A stretch of DNA of 64,000 nt from Nitrospinota bacterium (lineage in GTDB: Bacteria; Nitrospinota_A; UBA7883; JADGGD01): positions 96,408 to 160,407 of the forward strand of contig CALOCG010000035.1 of assembly GCA_942491805.1 (NCBI GenBank), in the 5' to 3' direction. The position numbers and the translations under genes are program-made. Under the pieces are notes generated by a model. It was not told the DNA's origin. It was given only the letters and a program-made list of their open reading frames with translations, and made no database searches. Shown one piece after another: positions 1,232-60,317 of the stretch (its first letter is position 1; each line of letters opens with the position of its first letter).

Positions 1232-2750
1232 TTCTCCTCCTCGACCAGCAGGGCCAAGGTTTCGTTATCCCGGGTGAACCACCGTTGGGCCACCCGCATG
1301 ACGTCGGCGGGGGTGACGGCCCGAATCGCTTCCAAATCCCGCTCGATGTTCCGCCAGTCGCCGGTTCTGATCTGATAGTCGGCCAAGAGACGGGCCATAC
1401 TGTAGTGGGAGACCATCCCTTTGACGAAATCGGCTTCGTACCGGGTCTTGACCCGGTTCAGCTCCTCTTCGGTCACCGGCGTTTTTTTCAGCCGTTGAAA
1501 ATCCCCCCATAACCCCGCTTAGACCTGGTCGACGCTGTGAGGGGGGCGCGGGACGCCGTAGATCACGTAGAGGTTCGGGAACCGGTCGCCGGGGGCGGCC
1601 CAGACGCCGAGGTTGATGGCGATTTTTCCCTCCCGCACCAACCGGGTGACGAAGCGGGAGGTGGGGCCACCGGCCAAGAGACCGTCGATGACGGCGAAGA
1701 CCGGGTCGTCGGCATGCGGCCAGACCGGTTTGTGAAAGCCCATCATAAACGACGGTCGAGCGTCTTTCACCAGTTCGACCCGGCGATACCCTCCTTGGGG
1801 CGGCTCTTCGGTGACGAGCCGGTCGGGGAGGGGGCGGGCCGGGATGTCGCCGAAATTCTCGGTGATCACCCGTTTGACTTCGTCGAAATCGAGATCGCCG
1901 ACGAGGGCGATGACGGCGTTGTTCGGGACGTACCAGGCGTCCAGAAGCGCTCCACCTCGGCCAGCGGCAAAGCGGCCACGTCCGACGGCCAGCCGATGAC
2001 CGGGTTGCCGTAGGGGTGGGCGATGAAGGCGGCCGAGAGGAACCGCTCGTAGAGGGCCCCTTCGGGGTTGTTCTCGTAGCGCATCCGTCGCTCTTCCATG
2101 ACCACGTCCCGCTCGGCGTAATATTCGCGGAAAACCGAGTTTTTGAGCCGTTGGCTTTCGACCCAAGCCCAAAGTTTTAACTTGTTGGCCGGGAGGCGGA
2201 TGAGGTAACTGGTCAGATCTTTGCTCGTCCCGGCGTTGAAACCGACCCCTCCGGCGGAGGAATAGATTTTCGAATAGATTTCCGAGACCACATATTTTTT
2301 ATGTTCGGCCTGGGCGGCGTCGCGTCGCGCGACAAGCGTGTCGATTTCCGTTTGCGGGGCGTTGGCCCGGCGGGCGGCGTCCAGACGGGCGCCAAGTTGA
2401 TCGACCTTCTCGAGCAGCGGCTTTTCTTTGGCCCAATCGAGGGAACCTAAGGTCCGGGTCCCTTTGAACATCATATGCTCGAGAAGATGGGCGGCGCCGG
2501 TGGCCCCTTCCCGCTCTTCCACCCCGCCGACTTTGAAAGCCATGTGGGCGGCGAAGATGGGGGCGCCGGGGCGTTGCAGAAGAACGACGGTCAGACCGTT
2601 GTCGAGGGTGAACTGCCGAATGCGCGCACCGAGGTCGTAGGCGTTCGCGCTCGCCGCCGTAACGGCAAGGGATAGTGCGAGGAATACGAATCCACGCAAG
2701 TAGACCTGCCCCCTTCGGGACGTTCGTTGAGATGCGTCAGACGCTTCCAT
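1228..2750 (-). pseudogene. M16B zinc peptidase, catalytic subunit, interrupted by a 1-base deletion (~1941) and an in-frame TAA (1519-1521); may be sequence error
   Basis: HLLEHMMFKGT inverted zincin motif, NAGTSKDLT, ERDVVMEERR in ORF 1866-2780; continues in the frame of ORF 1519-2172 (DAWYVPNNAVIALVGD) and, past TAA, in frame as AGLWGDFQRLKKTPVTEEELNRVK to 1228. Start codon uncertain (2750 or TTG 2699). Confidence 0.85.
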
Positions 2751-2840
2751 CAGGATGCGGTACCACCAGCCTCCGATCAATTAATGCGTTATGGTAGGCG
2801 GTGGGGAGGGACTCTGTCGACCGGAGTGTCCGATGGGGCG

Positions 2841-3271: not shown

Positions 3272-3730
3272 ATGTTCTTCAAACTTTTCCTCCTCTTTAC
3301 CGTCGTCCCGGTGACCGAGCTGTGGCTCCTGATCCTGGTCGGCGAGCGGATCGGGGGGCTTCAGACCGTTGCGCTGGTGGTCGTGACCGGCGCTCTGGGG
3401 GCATGGTTCGCCCGGGCTCAAGGCGCCGAGGTGATGCGGGCTCTTCAAACCGCCACGGCTCAAGGACGGATGCCGACCGACGAGGTGATCGACGGGGCGT
3501 TGATCCTCGCCGGGGGGGCGCTCCTGATCACCCCCGGTGTCATCACCGATTTCGTCGGCCTCTCGCTGGTGGCGCCTTTCACCCGCCGTCCGTTGCGGGG
3601 GTGGCTGAAACGAACCATGGCCGGTCGGATGACGGTGGTCACCTACGGGGCGCCCCCTTTCACGAGAAGCCGCCCCGGTGGGCAGCCCACCCCGCCCCCC
3701 GCCAACGATAAAGACGTGATCGACGTCTAA
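3272..3730 (+). CDS. fxsA: FxsA family membrane protein
   Basis: LFLLFTVVPVTELWLLI...ARAQG...LLITPGVITDFVGL, typical FxsA pattern. Confidence 0.9.
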   Translation: MFFKLFLLFTVVPVTELWLLILVGERIGGLQTVALVVVTGALGAWFARAQGAEVMRALQTATAQGRMPTDEVIDGALILAGGALLITPGVITDFVGLSLVAPFTRRPLRGWLKRTMAGRMTVVTYGAPPFTRSRPGGQPTPPPANDKDVIDV

Positions 3731-3885
3731 CCCCTACGCGGGGGGCGAGGGGCGCCACACGGAATGTACCGATGTGGTCTCGACAGCTTAAGGAACTTTT
3801 CATATACCAAACGCCGCCCCTACGCGGGGGCGAGGGGCGCCACACGGAATGTACCGGTGTGGTCTCGACAGCTTAAGGAACTTTT
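3731..3885 (+). repeat. Tandem direct repeat: two ~70-bp copies (3731-3800, 3817-3885) with a 16-bp spacer
   Basis: cccctacgcggggg(g)cgaggggcgccacacggaatgtaccg(a/g)tgtggtctcgacagcttaaggaactttt; copies differ by one G in the G-run and one substitution. Confidence 0.95.
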
Positions 3886-3888
3886 TAC

Positions 3889-4269
3889 ATGCCTCGCACC
3901 GGACTTATCCTCTTCGCCCACGGTAGCCGCGATCCCCGCTGGCGGGAGCCGTTCGTCGATCTCGAAAAACGGGTCGGCGCAAAATTGCCGCAGACTGCGG
4001 TCCGGGCCGCCTATTTGGAAGGGTGCGAGCCGACTCTCGACGCGGTGGTCGATCAAATGGCGACCAACGGAGTGCGGATCGTCACCGTGACGCCGATGTT
4101 CTTGGCGGTGGGAACCCATTCCCGCGACGATTTCCCGAAGATCGCCCGGCGCCTTTCGGAAACGCATCCGGGGATAACGATCCGCTGGACCGAGGTGTTG
4201 GGAGAATGGGACGAGGTGCGCGAGGCGATGGCGGCGGGGGTGGCCAAGCGGGTGGACGAGGCCCAATAA
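3889..4269 (+). CDS. cbiX: Short CbiX/SirB sirohydrochlorin chelatase
   Basis: LFAHGSRD, AYLEGCEPTL, PMFLAVGTHSRDDFP; SD aagga upstream. Confidence 0.9.
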   Translation: MPRTGLILFAHGSRDPRWREPFVDLEKRVGAKLPQTAVRAAYLEGCEPTLDAVVDQMATNGVRIVTVTPMFLAVGTHSRDDFPKIARRLSETHPGITIRWTEVLGEWDEVREAMAAGVAKRVDEAQ

Positions 4270-4276
4270 GGCCCCG

Positions 4277-5710
4277 CTATGCGACCGGTTCGTCGTCGGC
4301 TTTCATATCGAAGGTCATCACCACCCGGCGCCCCTCCTGGCTGAACAAAACTTCCCGGGCCAAGGTTCGCATGATCAGAATCCCCCGTCCGCTGGCCAGT
4401 TCTTCGTCGGCGTCGACCCCTTTCATCCAGCCGCGCCAGTCGAATCCTCCCCCTTCGTCGGTAATAGCCACCACCCCATGATCCCGGTCGAACTGGACAT
4501 CGACGGTCACCCGCCGTCCCCGATAGGGCTCTTCCCGGCGACGTTGTTCGGCCACCCGCATGAAAAGATCGAAGTCGCTCTCTTTAAGGGCCGAATCGAC
4601 CTCGAGGTTGCCGTGGAACAGGGCGTTGGACAACGCTTCGTCCAGGGCCAGCTCCACCGACCGGGCCGATAACCCGGACGACGCTGCGGCGAACTCTTCG
4701 CTGACCAACACCGCCACCGCGGGGATAAGCGCCGGGTCGGAGGGGATGACGAATCGGTCGGCCCCGGCGATCTGATACCGCCTCGCCTCGCGGGAGAGTC
4801 GTTCCCGTTCGGCTTCGTCGGCCACCACGGCGAATCCCCGCATCAGGCTGTCGACATCTTCGATGTCGGTGACTCCCAAGGCGGCGGCGCGGCTGCGAAT
4901 CACTTTCATCACGTCGTCGTTGGCCCGCCGGTGCCGTTCGATCTCGGCTTCGGTTTCGCGTCGCCGGGCCGCCAACGTCTCGGCCGCCCCCCGCAGTTCG
5001 TCGGCTACGAGATCGAATTCCCGGGTGCCGCTGGCGGGAAGATTGACGTCGAACTCCTCGCTACGCAGTTGGGTCACCGCACGGGCCAGCCGTTTCATCG
5101 GTTTGGTGATGACGGTATGGGTGAAGATCAGCAAGAGCGCGCCGTACAAAGCCATGGCGCCGGTGGCTTGCCAGACGATGTTATAGGTGACCCGACGTGA
5201 TTCGGCCACCAACGGGGCGAAGTTAAACGTGATGACGGCGGCGCCGTTGACGGCGCCGGGGGGGATCGGTTTGTCGTCCATCCCCCGGTGACATTTGCCG
5301 CACCGCTCGTCGGTGAGAAAGGGGAGGATGGTCCGTATGGTGTCGTCGTCGAGGGTGGTGGTGACCGTTTTTCCGGTGATGAGCGCTTCCCGCTCGTCGG
5401 AGGCGGAGGGCATCTTTTCGCTGCGATAGCCGAACTGCTTGAGCAGATGTTCGTTCCTGATCATCCGAAACCGGGCGAACCGTTCGTCTTTGATCTCGTC
5501 GATGACCTCCGATACCAGGTCGTAGTCGCCGGTGGCGATCATCACCGAGAGAATGCTGTCGCGGATCATCTCGCCGGAGGCCATGGCCATGGCTTCGGCT
5601 TCCCGCCGGTCTTTCCCGGCCAGCGACGAAACGAGAGTGAGGTCAATCATGGCGATTCCCACAAGGGTGACCGACCCGACCATGAACAACGCTTTCCACT
5701 GAAGACGCAT
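4277..5710 (-). CDS. Membrane sensor: periplasmic single-heme c domain + HAMP + RsbW-like HATPase (anti-sigma/Ser kinase)
   Basis: Two hydrophobic segments flanking ERCGKCH (CxxCH); ITKPMKRLARAV HAMP; ELALDEALSNALFHGN, ITDEGGGFD, SGRGILIM HATPase boxes. Confidence 0.8.
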   Translation of the reverse strand: MRLQWKALFMVGSVTLVGIAMIDLTLVSSLAGKDRREAEAMAMASGEMIRDSILSVMIATGDYDLVSEVIDEIKDERFARFRMIRNEHLLKQFGYRSEKMPSASDEREALITGKTVTTTLDDDTIRTILPFLTDERCGKCHRGMDDKPIPPGAVNGAAVITFNFAPLVAESRRVTYNIVWQATGAMALYGALLLIFTHTVITKPMKRLARAVTQLRSEEFDVNLPASGTREFDLVADELRGAAETLAARRRETEAEIERHRRANDDVMKVIRSRAAALGVTDIEDVDSLMRGFAVVADEAERERLSREARRYQIAGADRFVIPSDPALIPAVAVLVSEEFAAASSGLSARSVELALDEALSNALFHGNLEVDSALKESDFDLFMRVAEQRRREEPYRGRRVTVDVQFDRDHGVVAITDEGGGFDWRGWMKGVDADEELASGRGILIMRTLAREVLFSQEGRRVVMTFDMKADDEPVA

Positions 5711-5868
5711 TCCGCCCTTTGCCCTCTTTCGCCAAAAAGTATCCGGACAGCATAATACAGTCCGGGCACGGTGGGGAGAGGGAAGATGCGAATCTTTCCC
5801 GTGGTGGTGTCATCAAATCTTCTTTACCATGGAGGGCTGACACTGCCCGAACCAACTGCGGAGTAAAC

Positions 5869-7095
5869 ATGAACGCCACGTCTTTCCCGAAAAACAAGAT
5901 TTCGGTTCTTCTGCTCGAGAACATCCATCAGGTGGCTACCGCCAACTTCGAAAACGAATCGTTCAAAGTCGAGACCCTTGCCGGCGCCCTCGACCCGGAC
6001 GAACTGAAGAGAAAAATCGCCGATGTCCATGTGGTCGGTATCCGGTCGAAAACCCAACTCACCGGCGACATCATCAAAGAGGGGCGTCGGCTCCTCGCCA
6101 TCGGCGCTTTTTGTATCGGCACCAACCAGATCGACCTCGATACCGCCGCCGACTGCGGCGTGCCGGTCTTCAACGCCCCCTTCTCCAACACCCGTTCGGT
6201 GGCGGAGCTGGTCATCAGCCACGCGGTCTCTCTCTTGCGCCGCATCCCGGAAAAACATGAAGCGACCCATCGGGGCGAATGGTTGAAATCGGCGGAACGT
6301 TGCTACGAAGCCCGCGGCAAGACTATCGGCATCATCGGCTACGGCCACATCGGGACGCAGGTCTCGGTTATGGCCGAAGCGATGGGGATGAAGGTGGTCT
6401 TCTACGACATTATGGACAAACTGGCGCTCGGCAACGCGGTCCGGGTCAAATCAATGGACGAGTTGCTCGCTATCTCCGATATCGTCACCCTCCACGTTCC
6501 GGCCACACCGGTGACCAAAGGGATGTTCAGCCGCGACGTCATCGCCAAGATGAAAAACGACAGCTACCTGATCAACTACGCCCGGGGGAACGTGGTCGAT
6601 ATCGACGCGCTGGCCGACGAGATAGGCTCGGGCCGACTGGCCGGGGCCGCCATCGACGTCTTTCCGGTGGAGCCGAAAGCCAAAGGAGAGGCCTTCGTCT
6701 CGCCGTTGCAGGGGTTGCCGAACGTGATCTTGACCCCCCACATCGGCGGCTCGACGTTGGAGGCGCAAGAGGCCATAGGCGAAGAGGTCTCGGCCAAGCT
6801 CATCAAGTTCATCAACAACGGATCGACCACCATGGGGGTCAACGTGCCGGAGGTCGAACTGCCGATCCACGAGGAGAAGCACCGCATTCTCCATTTCCAC
6901 CGGAACATTCCCGGCGTTCTCCAGAAGGTCAACACCCTCTTCGGCGAAAAACAGGTCAACGTGTTGGGCCAATACCTGATGACCGATCCGAAAATCGGCT
7001 ATCTGGTCATGGACGTCTCGACCGAGGTCGACAAGTCCATGCTGGCGGCGTTGAACGAAGTCCCCGGAACCATCAAATCGCGCATCCTCTACTGA
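5869..7095 (+). CDS. serA: D-3-phosphoglycerate dehydrogenase with C-terminal ACT domain
   Basis: GIRSKTQLT, CIGTNQIDL, GIIGYGHIGTQ, LTPHIGGST; E. coli-type length; start reassigned to ATG 5869 after ggag. Confidence 0.95.
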   Translation: MNATSFPKNKISVLLLENIHQVATANFENESFKVETLAGALDPDELKRKIADVHVVGIRSKTQLTGDIIKEGRRLLAIGAFCIGTNQIDLDTAADCGVPVFNAPFSNTRSVAELVISHAVSLLRRIPEKHEATHRGEWLKSAERCYEARGKTIGIIGYGHIGTQVSVMAEAMGMKVVFYDIMDKLALGNAVRVKSMDELLAISDIVTLHVPATPVTKGMFSRDVIAKMKNDSYLINYARGNVVDIDALADEIGSGRLAGAAIDVFPVEPKAKGEAFVSPLQGLPNVILTPHIGGSTLEAQEAIGEEVSAKLIKFINNGSTTMGVNVPEVELPIHEEKHRILHFHRNIPGVLQKVNTLFGEKQVNVLGQYLMTDPKIGYLVMDVSTEVDKSMLAALNEVPGTIKSRILY

Positions 7096-49332: not shown

Positions 49333-52300
49333 CTACGACGGTCTGTTGAACGATGGCTGTTCTTTGAGCAGTTCTTCGAACCGTTCCGCCGGGACCGGCG
49401 GGGAGAAGAGGAACCCTTGCATCTGGTCGCACCCTTTCTCCTTGAGAAACTCCAACTGCTCGTAGGTTTCCACCCCTTCGGCCACCACCGACAATCCCAG
49501 CGAATGGGCCAGCGAGATGATCGCTTGGGCGATGACGGCGTCGTCCTGATCGCCGGGGATATCCCGCACGAACGACCGGTCGATCTTGAGCGTGTCGATG
49601 GGAAACCGTTTGAGGTAGGCCAACGACGAATAGCCGGTGCCGAAGTCATCGATGGCAATGCCGATACCCGACGCCGAGAGGCGGCGCAACGTTTCGATGG
49701 CGGCGTCGACGTCCCGCATGACGGTGCTCTCGGTGATTTCCATTTCGAGGTGGGCGGGGGCGACACCGCTGTCGGCCAGGGCGTCGGCGATCGATTCGAA
49801 AAGATTCTGCTCGGCGAACTGGAGGGCCGACAGGTTCACCGACACCACCAGATCGGTATGCCCCGCGTCGATCCAGCGGCGGGTCTGGGCCAAGGCTTCT
49901 TTTAAGGCGTAGATACCGATGGGGACGATCAGCCCGCTCTCTTCGGCCAGCGGGATGAACGTTCCGGGCGACACCAACCCGTGGGACGGGTGGCGCCAGC
50001 GGATGAGCGCCTCCATGCCCAAAACGGCGCCCGTGGAAAGCTCGAGCTTCGGTTGATAGTAGACGACGAACTCGTCCCGTTCGAGCCCCTTCCGCATATC
50101 CCGTTCCATGGTCAACGCGTCAAAACCGCTCCCCATGGTGGAGGTGTAGGTCTGATAGCCGTTCCCCCCCCGCTCTTTGGCTTGGCGGACGGCGAGGTCG
50201 GCGGTGCGGACCAGACTGTCGGCGTCGGCGCCGCTGGTCGGGTATTGCGACAGACCGACGCTGGCGGTGACGAATAGCTCTTCGTCGCCGACGACGAAGG
50301 GGGGGGCGAAGGTGGCGATCACCCTGCTGGCGAATCGACTGACGTCGCCCCCTTCCATATATTCGAGGATGAAGGTGAACTCGTCGCTCCCCCATCGGGC
50401 CAGCGTGTCTCCCTCCCCCAACAGGCCGGAGAGCCGAACGCCGACCTCCTGCAACAGGAGGTCTCCCACCAGATGTCCCAGTCCTTCGTTGATCTTCTTG
50501 AACCGGTCGATGGCGACGAAGACCACCGCCATTTTCCCGTGGGTTCGATGGGCCCACGCCAGCGATTGGTTGAGCCGGTCAAGGAAGAGGGGCCGGTTGG
50601 GAAGCCCGGTCAGGGCGTCGTGGTTGGCCTGATACCGAAGTTCCTCTTCACTTTTCTTCAGTTGCGACAGGTCGTGAAAGACGGAGATGTACTGCTTCGT
50701 CTTTCCGGCGTCGTCGCGAACGGCGGTGATGGTCGTCCATTGGGGATAGGCCTTGCCGTCTTTGCGACGGTTCCAAACCTCCCCTTCCCATTTCCCCTCT
50801 TCGATGAGAGCCCGCCACATTTCCTTATAGAAGGGGGCGTCGTGTCGGTCGGAGCGGAGAACGCGCGGGGTGCCGCCGAGGAGTTCCTCGGCCCGATAGC
50901 CGGTGATGTCGGTAACCGCCCGGTTGACGCTGGTGATAATCGACCGTTCGTCGGTGACCAGCACCCCTTCTGACGCATGGTCGAAAATGGTCGAGGCCAG
51001 CGCCAGTTGATCTTCAGCTTGTCGTCGCATCACTTCACGGCGGGCCGCTTCGATGATGTTCGCGCAAGTGCCGAGCGCCGGTTGCAGGAAGGTCACGTCG
51101 TCGGGCCGGTAGCCCATGGGGCGGTTGGCCAGTCCCAACACCCCGACGATCCGCGATCCGGCGAAGAGGGGGACGCCGAGGAAATTGTCGATGGGGGGAT
51201 GCCCCGACGGAAGCCCCTTCGCTTTCGGATCGTTCTTCGGATCGTTGGAGATGATCGGCTGACCGGTGGAGAGGAGCTCTCCGATCAACGAATCGGTTTT
51301 GCGAAAGACGATCTCTCTTCCCTCGTACGCTTTGGCGAAGGGGGCGAAGCGTTTTTCGGGGCTGGCGTCGGAAAAGGCTTTGACCTTGGCCACGAGCCCT
51401 CCCCCCTCTTCGACCACTTCGGCGACGAATCCGTGGAGGCTGTCGGTCAGTTCGAGCGCGTCGTCCAGAAAAGCGCCCAAGGTTTTGGCCTCCCCCTTGT
51501 TGGCGATATAGGCCTGCTGGGCCCGGCGGATGATGTCGAGCAGCCGGTTGGTCCGGGTCAGACTCTCCTCCGCCTCCCGCCGGAAGGTGATGTCGCGGCT
51601 GATCCCTCGGAAGCCGACGAACCGACCCTCCTCGTCTTCGAGAAGGAGACCGGAACATTCGAAGAGCGACGAAGCGCCGTTTTTGGCCACCTGCCATTGC
51701 ATCATGCCGGAGAAGGGGACGGGGGAGAGGAAGAGCTTTTGCGCCGCCTCCATCTGGGCGTCCCGGTGGGCGGGGGGGAAAAGATGGCCGAACGGCTTTC
51801 CGACGATAGCCGACGGGGGGTAGCCCAAAAGGTTTTCGACGTTCGGACTGGCGAAGGTATAGACGCCCCCCTCGTTCACTTCCCAGATCCAATCGCCCGC
51901 CTGATCGACCACTTCGCGGAATCGTTGTTCGGCAAGGGCCAGATCCTCTTGGGCGCGGCGTTGGCGGTTGGCTTGTCGATGAAGGGTGATCACCAGCAGG
52001 AGAAAGGTGGCGCCGCCGAAAAGAAGAAAGCCGTTAAAGAGGGAACGTTGGTGGCCGATCTCCCGTTCCATCATGAGACGGGCCTCCTCGGAGAGGGCGT
52101 CCAGATCGGCCATGATGCCGTTAAAGAGGAGATCGAACTCCCGGTCGTCGGGCTGCTGGTCCCTTGGCTTATCGCGGGCCTCCCAACGGAGGCGTCCCAA
52201 TGTCACGATCTGGTCGAGCCGACCCCGAAGCTCCTCCATGGCTGCGATCCGCTTACGTTCCGCCCGCTCCGCTATCGGGCCGGCGCCGGAGAGCGATGGG

Positions 52301-52578
52301 GGCGGCATCGTCTTAAGCAACTGTTCGCGAGCCTGATCGAACGAGCGCCACACCTGCTCCGAGGTATAGGTAGATTCTCCCGTCAGCGCTTCTTCGAGGG
52401 CCAGATGGGCTTTGGTCATGTCGGCTTGGATACGAACGAAAGCGTCGCGGGTCGGGAGGGTTCCCGCGAGCGTCGATTCCCACATCCGCTGGGTCGAGAC
52501 GAGGAGGGCCAACAAAGCGCCACCGACGACCAAGGCGATCAAGGCGATCGGTTCGAGCCCAAAGCGGGAGCGGTACAT
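49333..52578 (-). CDS. Membrane PAS-GAF-PAS-GGDEF-EAL c-di-GMP enzyme
   Basis: Two TMs; DWIWEV PAS; GAF GVPLFAGSRIVGVLGLAN; WEGEVWNRRKDG PAS; HDALTGLPNR, RWGSDEF; EAL, EITES, DDFGTGYSSL, EGVET; start at ATG 52578. Confidence 0.93.
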   Translation of the reverse strand: MYRSRFGLEPIALIALVVGGALLALLVSTQRMWESTLAGTLPTRDAFVRIQADMTKAHLALEEALTGESTYTSEQVWRSFDQAREQLLKTMPPPSLSGAGPIAERAERKRIAAMEELRGRLDQIVTLGRLRWEARDKPRDQQPDDREFDLLFNGIMADLDALSEEARLMMEREIGHQRSLFNGFLLFGGATFLLLVITLHRQANRQRRAQEDLALAEQRFREVVDQAGDWIWEVNEGGVYTFASPNVENLLGYPPSAIVGKPFGHLFPPAHRDAQMEAAQKLFLSPVPFSGMMQWQVAKNGASSLFECSGLLLEDEEGRFVGFRGISRDITFRREAEESLTRTNRLLDIIRRAQQAYIANKGEAKTLGAFLDDALELTDSLHGFVAEVVEEGGGLVAKVKAFSDASPEKRFAPFAKAYEGREIVFRKTDSLIGELLSTGQPIISNDPKNDPKAKGLPSGHPPIDNFLGVPLFAGSRIVGVLGLANRPMGYRPDDVTFLQPALGTCANIIEAARREVMRRQAEDQLALASTIFDHASEGVLVTDERSIITSVNRAVTDITGYRAEELLGGTPRVLRSDRHDAPFYKEMWRALIEEGKWEGEVWNRRKDGKAYPQWTTITAVRDDAGKTKQYISVFHDLSQLKKSEEELRYQANHDALTGLPNRPLFLDRLNQSLAWAHRTHGKMAVVFVAIDRFKKINEGLGHLVGDLLLQEVGVRLSGLLGEGDTLARWGSDEFTFILEYMEGGDVSRFASRVIATFAPPFVVGDEELFVTASVGLSQYPTSGADADSLVRTADLAVRQAKERGGNGYQTYTSTMGSGFDALTMERDMRKGLERDEFVVYYQPKLELSTGAVLGMEALIRWRHPSHGLVSPGTFIPLAEESGLIVPIGIYALKEALAQTRRWIDAGHTDLVVSVNLSALQFAEQNLFESIADALADSGVAPAHLEMEITESTVMRDVDAAIETLRRLSASGIGIAIDDFGTGYSSLAYLKRFPIDTLKIDRSFVRDIPGDQDDAVIAQAIISLAHSLGLSVVAEGVETYEQLEFLKEKGCDQMQGFLFSPPVPAERFEELLKEQPSFNRPS

Positions 52579-52732
52579 ATGGGGATAACTCTTTGCAGCT
52601 CTTTCGCCCAAAAGAAGTTGTTCATAACGATGATCAAAACCGACGACGTCCACCACGACGCTTACGAACGACCATTTTGCGACGAGTATGGCATCATTGC
52701 AAACAGAACCTTTACCGTCGGAGAGGAACGTC

Positions 52733-53977
52733 GTGGAGAATATACAAAGTCTCGTCGGTATCGTCACGCTGATCGGTGTCGCCTGGGGGATCAGCGAGAA
52801 CCGTCGCGCCGTAAAACCGAAGGGGGTCGTGGCCGGCGTGGCGCTTCAGCTGGTCATCGGGTTGGCTCTTTTAAAACTCCCGCTGATGGGGGAGCTTTTC
52901 TTGGCCTTAAACGGCATAGTACTCGCCGTCGACGCCGCCGCCACCGCCGGAACCTCGTTCGTCTTCGGCTACCTCGGCGGCGGGGATCTCCCTTTCGACG
53001 AGCCCTTCCCCGGCGCCGCGTTTGTGCTGGCGTTCAAAGGACTGCCGATCATTCTTGTCATGTCGGCCCTGTCGGCGTTGCTCTATCATTGGCGCATTTT
53101 GCCTTGGGTCATCAAAGGGATCGCGCGCGCTTTGACGGCGACCCTCGGCCTCGGCGGCGCCACCGGCTTGGCGACGGCGGCCAACGTCTTCGTCGGCATG
53201 GTCGAGGCGCCCCTGTTCATTCGCCCCTACCTTATGAGCCTCACCCGATCGGAGCTGTTCGTTCTGATGACCGGCGGGATGGCGACCATCGCCGGAACGA
53301 TGATGGTCCTATACGCCACCGTATTGGGACCGGTGATCCCCGACGCGATGGGGCATATCCTGACCGCGTCGCTTATCTCCGCCCCGGCTGCGGTGACGGT
53401 GGCGCTGATTATGATCCCCGAGACAGGAACCGTCACCGCCGGAACATCGTTCCCCCCGTCGGAAGCCGACTCCGCCATGGACGCCGTCACCCGGGGGACG
53501 AGCCAAGGGGTGAACCTGCTGATCCAGATCGTGGCGACGCTGGTGGTGTTGGTGGCGCTGGTCAGCCTCCTTAACCAGGGACTCGGCTTGGCAGGCGAGG
53601 CGGCCGGGGCTCCGTTGACCCTCGAACGACTGCTGGGGTGGCTCTTGGCGCCGGTGGCGTGGCTCCTCGGCGTCCCCTGGGGGGAAGCGATGGCCGCCGG
53701 ATCGCTGATGGGGGTGAAGGTGGCGTTGAACGAATTCCTGGCCTATTTGCAGATGGCCCACCTCCCCGCCGGGAGTCTCTCTTCTCGAACCGAGCTGATC
53801 ATGACCTACGCCCTCTGCGGCTTCGCCAACTTCGGGAGCCTCGGCATCATGATCGGCGGCATGGGCGCCATGGCCCCCGAACGGCGAGAAGAAATCGTCG
53901 GATTGGGATTGCGCTCCATCGTTTCGGGGAACGTGGCCAGTTTCATGTCGGGAGCGGTCATCGGCGTTTTAACCTGA
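52733..53977 (+). CDS. Concentrative nucleoside transporter (CNT/NupC family)
   Basis: GTSFVFG, ANVFVGMVEAP, GMATIAG, KVALNEFLAY, CGFANFGSLGI. Confidence 0.92.
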   Translation: MENIQSLVGIVTLIGVAWGISENRRAVKPKGVVAGVALQLVIGLALLKLPLMGELFLALNGIVLAVDAAATAGTSFVFGYLGGGDLPFDEPFPGAAFVLAFKGLPIILVMSALSALLYHWRILPWVIKGIARALTATLGLGGATGLATAANVFVGMVEAPLFIRPYLMSLTRSELFVLMTGGMATIAGTMMVLYATVLGPVIPDAMGHILTASLISAPAAVTVALIMIPETGTVTAGTSFPPSEADSAMDAVTRGTSQGVNLLIQIVATLVVLVALVSLLNQGLGLAGEAAGAPLTLERLLGWLLAPVAWLLGVPWGEAMAAGSLMGVKVALNEFLAYLQMAHLPAGSLSSRTELIMTYALCGFANFGSLGIMIGGMGAMAPERREEIVGLGLRSIVSGNVASFMSGAVIGVLT

Positions 53978-54081: not shown

Positions 54082-54435
54082 ATGACGATCAACAAATTTT
54101 CTACCGACGACGGCATTACCATTTTCCGCCTGTCGGGCAAGCTGATCGCCTCGACCCTCGACGGCTTGAAGACCAATCTCGATACCGCGTTGGCCGACGA
54201 CGGAGCGCGGGTGGTGCTAAACTTCAAACTGGTCAACATCATCGATTCGGTGGCGGTGGGGCTGCTTATCAGCCGGTTCAAAGCGGCCAAGAAGAAAAAG
54301 GGCGCCATGCTCTTCACCGACCTGCAACCGGCCCTGATGCGTCTGTTGGCGCTGGCCGATCTCGACAAGTGGCTGGACATCCACCCCTCCGAAGACGAGG
54401 CGTTGACGGTTCTGCGAACCGACGCGAAGCCCTAG
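54082..54435 (+). CDS. STAS-domain anti-sigma-factor antagonist
   Basis: FRLSGKL, VVLNFKLVNIIDSVAVGLLI (conserved DS phospho-site). Confidence 0.88.
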   Translation: MTINKFSTDDGITIFRLSGKLIASTLDGLKTNLDTALADDGARVVLNFKLVNIIDSVAVGLLISRFKAAKKKKGAMLFTDLQPALMRLLALADLDKWLDIHPSEDEALTVLRTDAKP

Positions 54436-59189: not shown

Positions 59190-60317
59190 TTAGCGCCGTT
59201 CGATAAAGAGGATGGCCACATCGTCGTTCAGGCTCTCCTCGGCGTTGAAGTCGTCCACATCCCGCATGATGAGGGTCAAAATGTCGTCGATGTTTTCCGT
59301 TCGTTTGTCGTTCACCAGCGCCGAGAGGCGGGCGAGGCCATATTGCGCACCGTCGCCGTCCATCGCTTCGATGATCCCGTCGGAGTAGGCGAGCAATCGA
59401 TCTCCCGGTTGCAAGGTCACCTCTCCCTCCTCCACCGAGAAATCGTCGAAGAGTCCCACCAACTCCCCTTTGGCCTCCAACCGTTCCACCGATCCGTCGA
59501 CACGATGCAAGAGGGGATAGGGGTGGCCCGCCCGGATGTAGCGCATGGCGCCGGTGGCGCTGTCGAGCCGTCCGAAGAACATGGTCAAGTATTGATCTTC
59601 CGGTGTGACGGCGAGGAGCTTTTCGTTGAACCGATGGGCGATTTCGATCGGCCCTTCGTTTTGGGCCACCGCATGTTCGGCGATGACCTTCAGCATCGAA
59701 ACAGCGAGCGCCGCGCTGGGGCCGTGGCCCGAAACGTCGGCGATAAGGACGCCGCAGGTTCCGTCGCCATAGTCGATCACGTCGTAGAAATCTCCCCCGA
59801 TAGAGGAGGTCGCCCGATAGCGAGCGGCGCAGCTGAGCCGGTCGCCGTAGGGGAAGGTCTGTGGCAACAGGGCGCTTTGCACCGCCTGCGCCAGAGCAAG
59901 CTCCTGGTCGAGCGCCTCTTTCGATTCGGCCACCTCGTCATAGAGCCGTTTGATCCGTAGCATCGAGTTGACCCGGGCCACCAGCTCCGGTTCCATGAAC
60001 GGTTTGCTGACATACTCGTCGGCGCCGGCTTCCAGTCCTTCGACCATATCGCGGACATCGTGTTTGCGGGCGGTAAGCAGGATGATCGGCACATGGTGGG
60101 TGGAGGGATCGGCTTTCAAGCGGCTGGCCACTTGCAGGCCGTCCAACACCGGCATCATCACGTCGAGCAGCACCAGATCGATCCGGCGCGAGAAGGCGAC
60201 CTTCAACGCCTCTCCTCCGTCGTAGGCGGTGTGGACGGTATGTCCCAACCGCTCCAGAATAAGTTTCAGGAGGTAGACGTTATCTTCGATATCGTCGACG
60301 ACAAGAATATCGGCCAT
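59190..60317 (-). CDS. Response regulator receiver + PP2C (RsbU/SpoIIE) phosphatase
   Basis: ILVVDD, LLDVMMP, YVSKPF; IGGDFYD, ADVSGHG, YSDGIIE, DDVA. Confidence 0.93.
   Translation of the reverse strand: MADILVVDDIEDNVYLLKLILERLGHTVHTAYDGGEALKVAFSRRIDLVLLDVMMPVLDGLQVASRLKADPSTHHVPIILLTARKHDVRDMVEGLEAGADEYVSKPFMEPELVARVNSMLRIKRLYDEVAESKEALDQELALAQAVQSALLPQTFPYGDRLSCAARYRATSSIGGDFYDVIDYGDGTCGVLIADVSGHGPSAALAVSMLKVIAEHAVAQNEGPIEIAHRFNEKLLAVTPEDQYLTMFFGRLDSATGAMRYIRAGHPYPLLHRVDGSVERLEAKGELVGLFDDFSVEEGEVTLQPGDRLLAYSDGIIEAMDGDGAQYGLARLSALVNDKRTENIDDILTLIMRDVDDFNAEESLNDDVAILFIERR

Follow-up and report, generated by a model that had tools for sequence, protein, structure and literature searches.

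A predicted haem-c receptor with an RsbW/LvrC-type output domain in Nitrospinota

Can a periplasmic haem-c sensor be wired, within a single polypeptide, to an anti-sigma kinase of the RsbW type? This question is raised by a gene at 4277..5710 (minus strand) of a 64,000-nucleotide (nt) stretch of DNA from a Nitrospinota bacterium (GenBank assembly GCA_942491805.1, contig CALOCG010000035.1, positions 96,408 to 160,407), which we call the window. The gene is an intact single open reading frame (ORF) encoding a protein of 477 amino acids (aa), named P0001, which an earlier note, made from the letters of the sequence, had described as such a sensor kinase feeding a partner-switching circuit. We find that P0001 is a real receptor, conserved within and specific to Nitrospinota. 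On balance, and with some reserve, we think that this one-protein receptor couples haem-c sensing through a HAMP domain and a helical hairpin to an RsbW/LvrC-type domain that acts on STAS proteins.

Architecture of P0001

From the N-terminus, P0001 consists of a transmembrane helix (TM1), a periplasmic domain with a CxxCH motif, a second transmembrane helix (TM2), a HAMP domain, a helical hairpin devoid of a conserved histidine, and a full-length HATPase_c_2 domain. The order read in the earlier note agrees with the Pfam scan, which we read down to E<=1 with each score set against its curated cut-off, with the hydropathy scan, and with the family alignment; both of the family assignments made there, a haem-c sensor and an RsbW-type ATPase, also hold. 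A search of NCBIfam gave weak similarities in the HAMP region and a faint RsbA anti-sigma match, and nothing more. The hydropathy scan revealed two hydrophobic segments, residues 6-32 and 178-202, with ~145 residues between them. We place TM1 at residues 7-30 (5621..5692; this and all further coordinates within the gene are on the minus strand) and TM2 at residues 177-200 (5111..5182), which fall in helices 3-60 and 165-216 of the AlphaFold model, respectively (mean predicted local distance difference test score, pLDDT, 79.8). A strongly basic stretch lies C-terminal to TM2, in keeping with a topology in which the loop is periplasmic and the N- and C-termini are cytoplasmic.

The periplasmic domain (residues 31-176; 5183..5620) was delimited with the family profile, PF21563, and the model. 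Its CGKCH haem-c attachment motif (residues 137-141; 5288..5302) supplies C137, C140, and H141, which do not vary in any of the 17 family members or in the 88 aligned sensor relatives; a CxxCH is present in 143 of the 146 best sensor relatives. Met57 (5540..5542) is the candidate distal axial haem ligand; the 17-sequence alignment shows it conserved to at least 90%, and in a 10-sequence alignment it does not vary. The family profile matches the sensor of GSU0935 (PDB 3b42) with E=1.1e-4 over residues 40-141, through the CxxCH, and when the numbering offset is set by Cys140, Cys143, and His144 of that structure, Met57 falls on chain residue 26, namely Met60. This methionine is the distal ligand on the reduced haem, is let go on oxidation, and is displaced by nitric oxide (NO) or carbon monoxide (CO) (PMC8396549). 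The P0001 model has a long helix at the N-terminus and a small α/β domain, with the CxxCH on a short helix between strands, and its order of secondary structures fits the description of the sCache_haem domain (PMC12889525). The same preprint groups GSU0582, GSU0935, and the DUF3365/Tll0287 domains as a single family of Cache domains and describes its signalling members as sensors of NO. The Foldseek match of the sensor to 3b47 was only weak (E=0.04), and PF11845 was not reported for P0001 in the Pfam scan; among the 88 closest sensor relatives, PF21563 was matched by 18 and PF11845 by seven. By its sequence, we assign the P0001 sensor to the sCache_haem (DUF3365/Tll0287/GSU0582-0935) domains as a distant member, and we infer a covalently bound haem c. 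Periplasmic attachment of the haem is feasible because the source genome encodes three cytochrome-c assembly homologues.

The C-terminal domain (residues 319-468; 4307..4756) was identified as an RsbW/LvrC-type Bergerat ATP-binding domain by PF13581, by the structure 9qih, and by Foldseek. The HATPase_c_2 profile (PF13581; 43.8 bits, cut-off 27.4) is matched over its full length, positions 1-127 of 127, by residues 322-467. The RsbW/SpoIIAB-type motif quoted in the earlier note is the N box ELALDEALSNALFHGN (residues 353-368; 4607..4654), in which E358 and N362 are spaced E-x-x-x-N; its residues E353, L354, E358, A359, N362, H366, G367, and N368 are invariant in the 17-sequence alignment. The same is true of D418, G420, G422, and F423 in the G1 box DEGGGF (4442..4459) and of G441, R442, and G443 in the G2 box GRG (4382..4390). 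Among solved structures, LvrC (PDB 9qih) is the closest in sequence: the family profile matches it over residues 321-474 with E=1.1e-9. The molecule name attached to that entry, 'SenB', gave unrelated proteins in the literature and was set aside; the Foldseek description led to LvrC. This Leptospira protein comprises a receiver and a Bergerat-fold anti-sigma domain, was crystallised with ADP and Mg2+, and has been proposed to sequester an unknown sigma factor (PMC13269768). Foldseek comparisons of the output domain also gave RsbW (6m36/6m37; TM-score 0.76-0.84, normalised to the target), the SpoIIAB-type structures 1l0o, 1th8, and 1til (0.72-0.75), and UsfX.

The two halves are joined by a HAMP domain (residues 200-246; 4973..5113), defined by PF00672, by conserved residues, and by the family profile, and by a helical hairpin (residues 247-318; 4757..4972; model helices 230-277 and 283-310) situated where a sensor kinase has its dimerisation and histidine phosphotransfer (DHp) domain. 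P204 and E231 of the HAMP domain are invariant in the family alignment, and the family profile matches the HAMP structures of Af1503, EnvZ, and NarQ with E values of 0.004-0.04; on such sequence evidence the domain is very probably real. In the hairpin, A275 and G279 are invariant, D298 is at least 90% conserved, and residue 273 is Ser in 15 of the 17 members and Asp or Glu in the remaining two. The 17-sequence alignment contains no conserved histidine between the HAMP and ATPase domains (residues 247-318), the His260 of P0001 being unique to that protein, and at E<=1 the Pfam scan of P0001 returned no match to HisKA, HisKA_2, HisKA_3, HWE_HK, or HATPase_c (PF02518). The earlier note was right, then, that the phospho-His box of HisKA is missing; the true histidine kinases of the source genome do carry H boxes.

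Relatives of the two halves and distribution in the phylum

About 16 full-length relatives, 468-510 aa long and 30-54% identical, were found among 5.8 billion proteins, and every one with a named source comes from Nitrospinae/Nitrospinota. The receptor is encoded in 26 of 33 Nitrospinota species genomes, in 21 of 26 genera, and in 16 of the 22 high-quality genomes, mostly as a single full-length copy, with two copies in at least one genome (G004). A scan of 185,579 species genomes returned no full-length relative outside the phylum. Because the architecture is kept across the whole phylum, a chance arrangement of the domains is ruled out. In a maximum-likelihood tree, the haem-fused output domains form one clade (support 100/99), which points to a fusion that arose once and was passed down within the phylum; a long-branch sequence, a receiver (REC) fused to a PP2C phosphatase, was placed inside this clade, where its position is unreliable. 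The ATPase domain clades with REC- and PilZ-fused LvrC-like domains, apart from histidine kinases. Its nearest relatives outside the phylum are likewise REC- or PilZ-fused, ~300-400 aa long, and mostly from Planctomycetota; they are soluble, as the earlier note had said RsbW kinases normally are. A further Nitrospinota protein of ~305 aa (genome G016, C4:639576-640493; locus L131:277-1194) carries an LvrC-like Bergerat domain that shares the insertion of P0001 and has the HGNL motif, and its N-terminal receiver appears to be without the usual acidic pocket and is maybe a pseudo-receiver.

The outputs attached to relatives of the sensor-HAMP module were surveyed with a profile of residues 1-320 in an HMMER scan of 1.84 billion representative proteins, which took the place of a word-indexed search with residues 30-320 that returned almost nothing. 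The profile gave 2416 matches at E<=0.001; the 16 at E<=1e-30 are the family itself, and beyond them extends a long tail of sensor-transmembrane-HAMP proteins. Pfam outputs were tallied on 88 of the best 146 sensor relatives: HAMP was present in 53, GGDEF in 31, MCPsignal in 28, HATPase_c_2 in 17, HATPase_c in 11, EAL in nine, HisKA in eight, the HD-GYP type (HD_5) in three, and SpoIIE in one (P0152). These relatives feed GGDEF, methyl-accepting chemotaxis protein (MCP), and histidine kinase outputs, consistent with what the earlier note had given as the usual partners of haem-c sensors, and the outputs listed in the literature for haem-c Cache domains are MCP, histidine kinase, GGDEF/EAL, cyclase, and HAMP alone (PMC12889525). 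The C-terminal-domain profile is strong only on the Nitrospinota family; on the other 133 best sensor relatives it gave just two weak and partial matches, P0164 (E=7e-5) and P0092 (E=4e-4). P0164, the one remaining HATPase_c_2 match that was read, is a HisKA_2-type histidine kinase, and the remaining matches outside the family are probably cross-matches similar to it. Since the C-terminal profile is strong only there, it is only in the Nitrospinota family that a haem-c Cache sensor is joined to the RsbW/LvrC-type output.

P0152, a protein of 724 aa from the representative library, is a haem-c sensor-HAMP relative fused to SpoIIE/PP2C. In this protein, haem sensing would enter a partner switch from the phosphatase side.

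Candidate partners and gene neighbourhood

The source genome, which is 83.5% complete, encodes two RsbV-like STAS proteins with a phospho-serine and one REC-PP2C. One STAS gene is found in the window (54082..54435, plus strand; PF01740, 65.5 bits) and encodes a stand-alone protein of 117 aa in which the D-S phospho-site motif is kept. The RsbY-like REC-PP2C (SpoIIE-family) gene also lies in the window (59190..60317, minus strand; PF07228, 159.8 bits; PF00072, 95.3 bits), and its product is a candidate for the opposing phosphatase. The neighbours of the STAS gene at 54082 are a nucleoside-transporter-like gene and, in convergent orientation, glnB (P-II), which is also paired with it in G028. 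Some 1.3 kb upstream of this STAS gene, positions 49333-52767 (minus strand) encode a membrane-anchored protein of 1144 aa; as read from its translation only, it contains GGDEF and EAL motifs together with several PAS-like regions.

The second STAS gene (C39:97277-97621) is directly preceded by a gene for a REC protein of 283 aa (C39:96408-97259), in which Pfam and hhalign gave no match to an RsbW-type kinase. Its orthologue in G005, a genome of another class, is an intact REC-HATPase_c_2 kinase followed by PP2C and STAS genes. Aligned with this orthologue, the C39 protein has the same domain with the N-box Asn and the G1 and G2 boxes lost, as it does in G028, and from the alignment it is likely a pseudokinase that retains a binding role. 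The loss of the ATP motifs in the adjoining REC protein leaves the C39 STAS protein with no competent kinase in cis. The other PF13581 matches in the source genome are ordinary histidine kinases with H boxes or members of an RsbR-S-T stressosome cluster. This cluster, which is complete (C22:90349-95227), encodes an RsbR-like protein of 302 aa with a C-terminal STAS domain, an RsbS-like STAS protein of 119 aa, an RsbT-like kinase of 135 aa, a HATPase_c_2-PP2C fusion of 341 aa, and, directly after it, a PAS-GGDEF-EAL protein, whose position suggests that the output is cyclic di-GMP and not a sigma factor.

In two near-complete or complete genomes, G028 (100%) and G024 (97%), the receptor orthologue is the only RsbW-type HATPase_c_2 match, and both genomes also carry 2-3 RsbV-like STAS genes and a REC-PP2C. 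The argument that the receptor is the only kinase in the genome fails for the other Nitrospinota class, in which several HATPase_c_2 proteins are present. Reading of the seven sigma-70-family genes of the source genome identified FliA as the only group-3 sigma factor; we rejected it as an obligate sigma target, as it is absent from four receptor-bearing genomes (G029-G031 and G012).

The receptor gene itself is apparently transcribed alone. It is divergent from serA (5719-7095, plus strand) and convergent with cbiX (3889-4269, plus strand), a small sirohydrochlorin-chelatase-like gene, the two stop codons in the window being only 7 nt apart. The convergent cbiX-fxsA pair (3272-4269, plus strand, in the window) also adjoins the receptor gene in loci L025, L026, and L050, and in the former two it is followed by thiE, thiS, thiH, and thiG. 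The upstream neighbours vary among Nitrospinota. In locus L027 (5369-7372), a gene for a 667-aa fusion of REC, a sigma54 activator, and LpxC lies close to the receptor gene. A related fusion, of a receiver to an LpxC-like (UDP-3-O-acyl-GlcNAc deacetylase) domain, is encoded by a ~440-aa gene that lies within 600 nt of the LvrC-like gene in 32 LvrC-like loci, mostly of Planctomycetota (among L053-L128; e.g., L124:6864-8234). Elsewhere in the window, at 1519-2780 (minus strand), the M16-peptidase gene that lies upstream of the one for its lipoprotein partner is broken into two overlapping ORFs (1866-2780 and 1519-2172) in different frames, which looks like a frameshift or an assembly error.

Proposed mechanism, rival explanations, and known systems

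In the mechanism that we favour on balance, the sCache-type periplasmic domain would bind one c-type haem via C137 and C140, as in its homologues, with H141 as the proximal ligand and Met57 probably as an exchangeable distal one. If it works like GSU0582/GSU0935 and the other sCache_haem receptors, the sensor may respond to NO or another diatomic gas, or to the redox state of the periplasm. Judging from the anatomy of the protein, the signal would pass through TM2 and the HAMP domain into the His-less, DHp-like hairpin, which would set the activity or the partner affinity of the Bergerat domain; this domain is presumed to be active, its ATP/Mg2+ motifs being intact at the sequence level. The most likely output would be ATP-dependent serine phosphorylation, or reversible binding, of an RsbV-like STAS protein encoded elsewhere, and a REC-PP2C phosphatase would oppose the kinase. 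P0001 would accordingly form a partner-switching node in which the kinase, and not the phosphatase, is the membrane sensor. A more specific scheme, which we hold to be rather doubtful, is a 'split' switch: the haem receptor would be the only competent RsbW-type kinase and would turn a periplasmic NO or redox signal into serine phosphorylation of free RsbV-like STAS proteins, the part of binding partner would have been taken over by the separate REC-fused pseudokinase (C39:96408-97259), and the REC-PP2C would reset the switch. If true, the whole phylum would have a signalling route that senses the environment with the kinase instead of the phosphatase.

Several observations weigh against a STAS-directed receptor. 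No STAS, PP2C, or sigma gene adjoins the receptor gene in the window or in the Nitrospinota loci L025-L027, the sole conserved neighbour being the convergent cbiX-fxsA pair, and LvrC, the closest characterised relative, is proposed to be an anti-sigma factor, not a STAS kinase. Two of the profile scores on P0001 are below their cut-offs, namely HAMP (PF00672), just so, with 24.7 bits against 25, and Mcp40H-20_sensor (PF21563) with 20.9 bits against 27. Orthologues of the 54082 STAS protein are clear in the kinase-less genomes G017, G023, G025, and G032 (each estimated 91-99% complete), and none was seen in seven kinase-bearing genomes. Because its presence across genomes does not match that of the kinase, we downgrade this protein as a substrate without rejecting it: the earlier note had named a STAS protein at this position for a kinase assay, and the 117-aa gene is indeed there, while its role as the cognate substrate is possible but weakly linked. 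The kinase is also absent from G017, G011, G025, and G032 (estimated 94-99% complete), in which STAS genes are retained, and in the other class the C39-type STAS protein has its own intact REC-kinase and PP2C in the operon, with the receptor still present. A modest co-occurrence does speak for the mechanism, but its statistics are weak: the C39-type STAS gene and the receptor occur together in 23 genomes and are both missing from four, with the receptor alone in three and the STAS gene alone in three (Fisher p=0.023), and for the REC-PP2C the corresponding numbers are 21, five, five, and two (p=0.016); these p values ignore common descent and stem in part from genomes that are small and reduced. 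The partner-switching claim of the earlier note is thus upheld in part: the ATP motifs are intact, outside the phylum a STAS gene is adjacent to the gene for the related domain in 11 of 76 loci, several with a 4-nt overlap, and in G028 and G024 no other RsbW-type kinase is recognisable, but the receptor gene has no such partner beside it.

The main rival is a pure anti-sigma role, in which the Bergerat domain of a membrane-tethered anti-sigma factor would hold a sigma factor and release it on the haem signal, with ATP serving structural or allosteric purposes only. We keep this as a tentative alternative. It is the role proposed for LvrC, and the lack of a STAS gene next to the receptor and the small share of related loci with one point the same way. 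Against it, no sigma gene adjoins the receptor either, four receptor-bearing genomes lack FliA, and the strict invariance of the catalytic-type E-x-x-x-N and G boxes fits catalysis, although nucleotide binding alone would also account for it. A minor rival is that P0001 is a degenerate histidine kinase, for example of HisKA_2/HWE ancestry, which lost its phospho-His and now acts as a pseudokinase or scaffold or is autophosphorylated elsewhere. The layout of P0001 does mirror that of sensor kinases, with WalK, CpxA, and EnvZ as the best full-length matches of the whole chain in Foldseek; PF13581 also picks up HisKA_2-type kinases, P0164 for one, through their ATPase domains; and, speculatively, the Ser/Asp/Glu pattern at residue 273 could mark a phospho-site. 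We nevertheless judge this origin unlikely, given the lack of any HisKA, HisKA_2, HWE_HK, or HATPase_c match at E<=1, the grouping of the ATPase domain with LvrC-like REC/PilZ fusions and not with histidine kinases, the two weak partial matches that were all the output profile found on the other 133 sensor relatives, and the variability of His260 in the family. It is also conceivable, though highly improbable in our view, that the periplasmic domain senses no signal, being a redox-active or structural cytochrome-like module or free of haem, and that the cytoplasmic part is regulated otherwise. The score of PF21563 under its cut-off is compatible with this, as is the report that about half of the sCache_haem domains stand alone, with possible redox roles (PMC12889525). 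However, the domain has the usual arrangement of a receptor, lying between two transmembrane helices and followed directly by a HAMP domain; conservation is seen at Met57 as well as in the CxxCH, and the relatives that share the sensor-HAMP module carry signalling outputs.

Among the Nitrospinota are marine bacteria that oxidise nitrite, and to these the chemistry of nitrogen oxides and redox reactions in the periplasm is central. Since the receptor is mostly single-copy and kept in most Nitrospinota, it is a testable candidate for sensing this chemistry. It would also be a well-defined example of a partner switch whose transmembrane sensor is the kinase or anti-sigma component itself. The RsbW-type domain is absent from the listed outputs of haem-c Cache domains, to which the Nitrospinota family would add a new class, and our literature search found no description of an architecture combining a haem-c sensor with an RsbW-type output. 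Both the role of sCache_haem domains as NO/redox sensors and that of LvrC-type Bergerat outputs as regulators were recognised only in papers of 2026.

Comparisons with known systems show where P0001 is familiar and where it departs from them. The Geobacter sulfurreducens chemoreceptors GSU0582 and GSU0935 likewise have a periplasmic domain with one CxxCH between two transmembrane helices, and a HAMP domain after TM2, and Met57 aligns with the distal ligand Met60, but their output is MCP signalling instead of an RsbW/LvrC-type Bergerat domain, and the sequence similarity is low. LvrC (lic11110, PDB 9qih) has in common with P0001 the nucleotide-binding site and an insertion between the N and G1 boxes; it differs in being soluble and in its input, a receiver phosphorylated by LvrB, where P0001 has a transmembrane haem sensor, a HAMP domain, and the hairpin. 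RsbW and SpoIIAB of Bacillus share the Bergerat fold, the HATPase_c_2 profile, and the N, G1, and G2 motifs. They are, however, soluble proteins of ~140-160 aa whose genes lie beside those of their STAS and sigma partners, whereas P0001 is a 477-aa membrane receptor with none adjacent, and its ATPase domain has an extra helix of ~25 residues. In Chlamydia RsbU and Bacillus cereus RsbK-RsbY, where the PP2C that feeds the partner switch is a membrane protein or under receiver control, an environmental signal enters a STAS-based switch via a sensor-linked enzyme, as proposed here. The sensing enzyme in those systems is, as far as is known, the phosphatase, while in P0001 a kinase-type component would sense. 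In the case of the Cache_haem-HAMP (CHH) receptor of Pseudomonas azotoformans, a haem-c sensor and a HAMP domain are coupled to Ser/Thr phosphorylation, but by a separate PknB-like Hanks-type kinase that docks on the HAMP domain, and not by a fused GHKL/RsbW-type domain as in P0001 (10.64898/2026.05.25.727664). Seen beside these systems, P0001 is a recombination of known modules and not a new principle.

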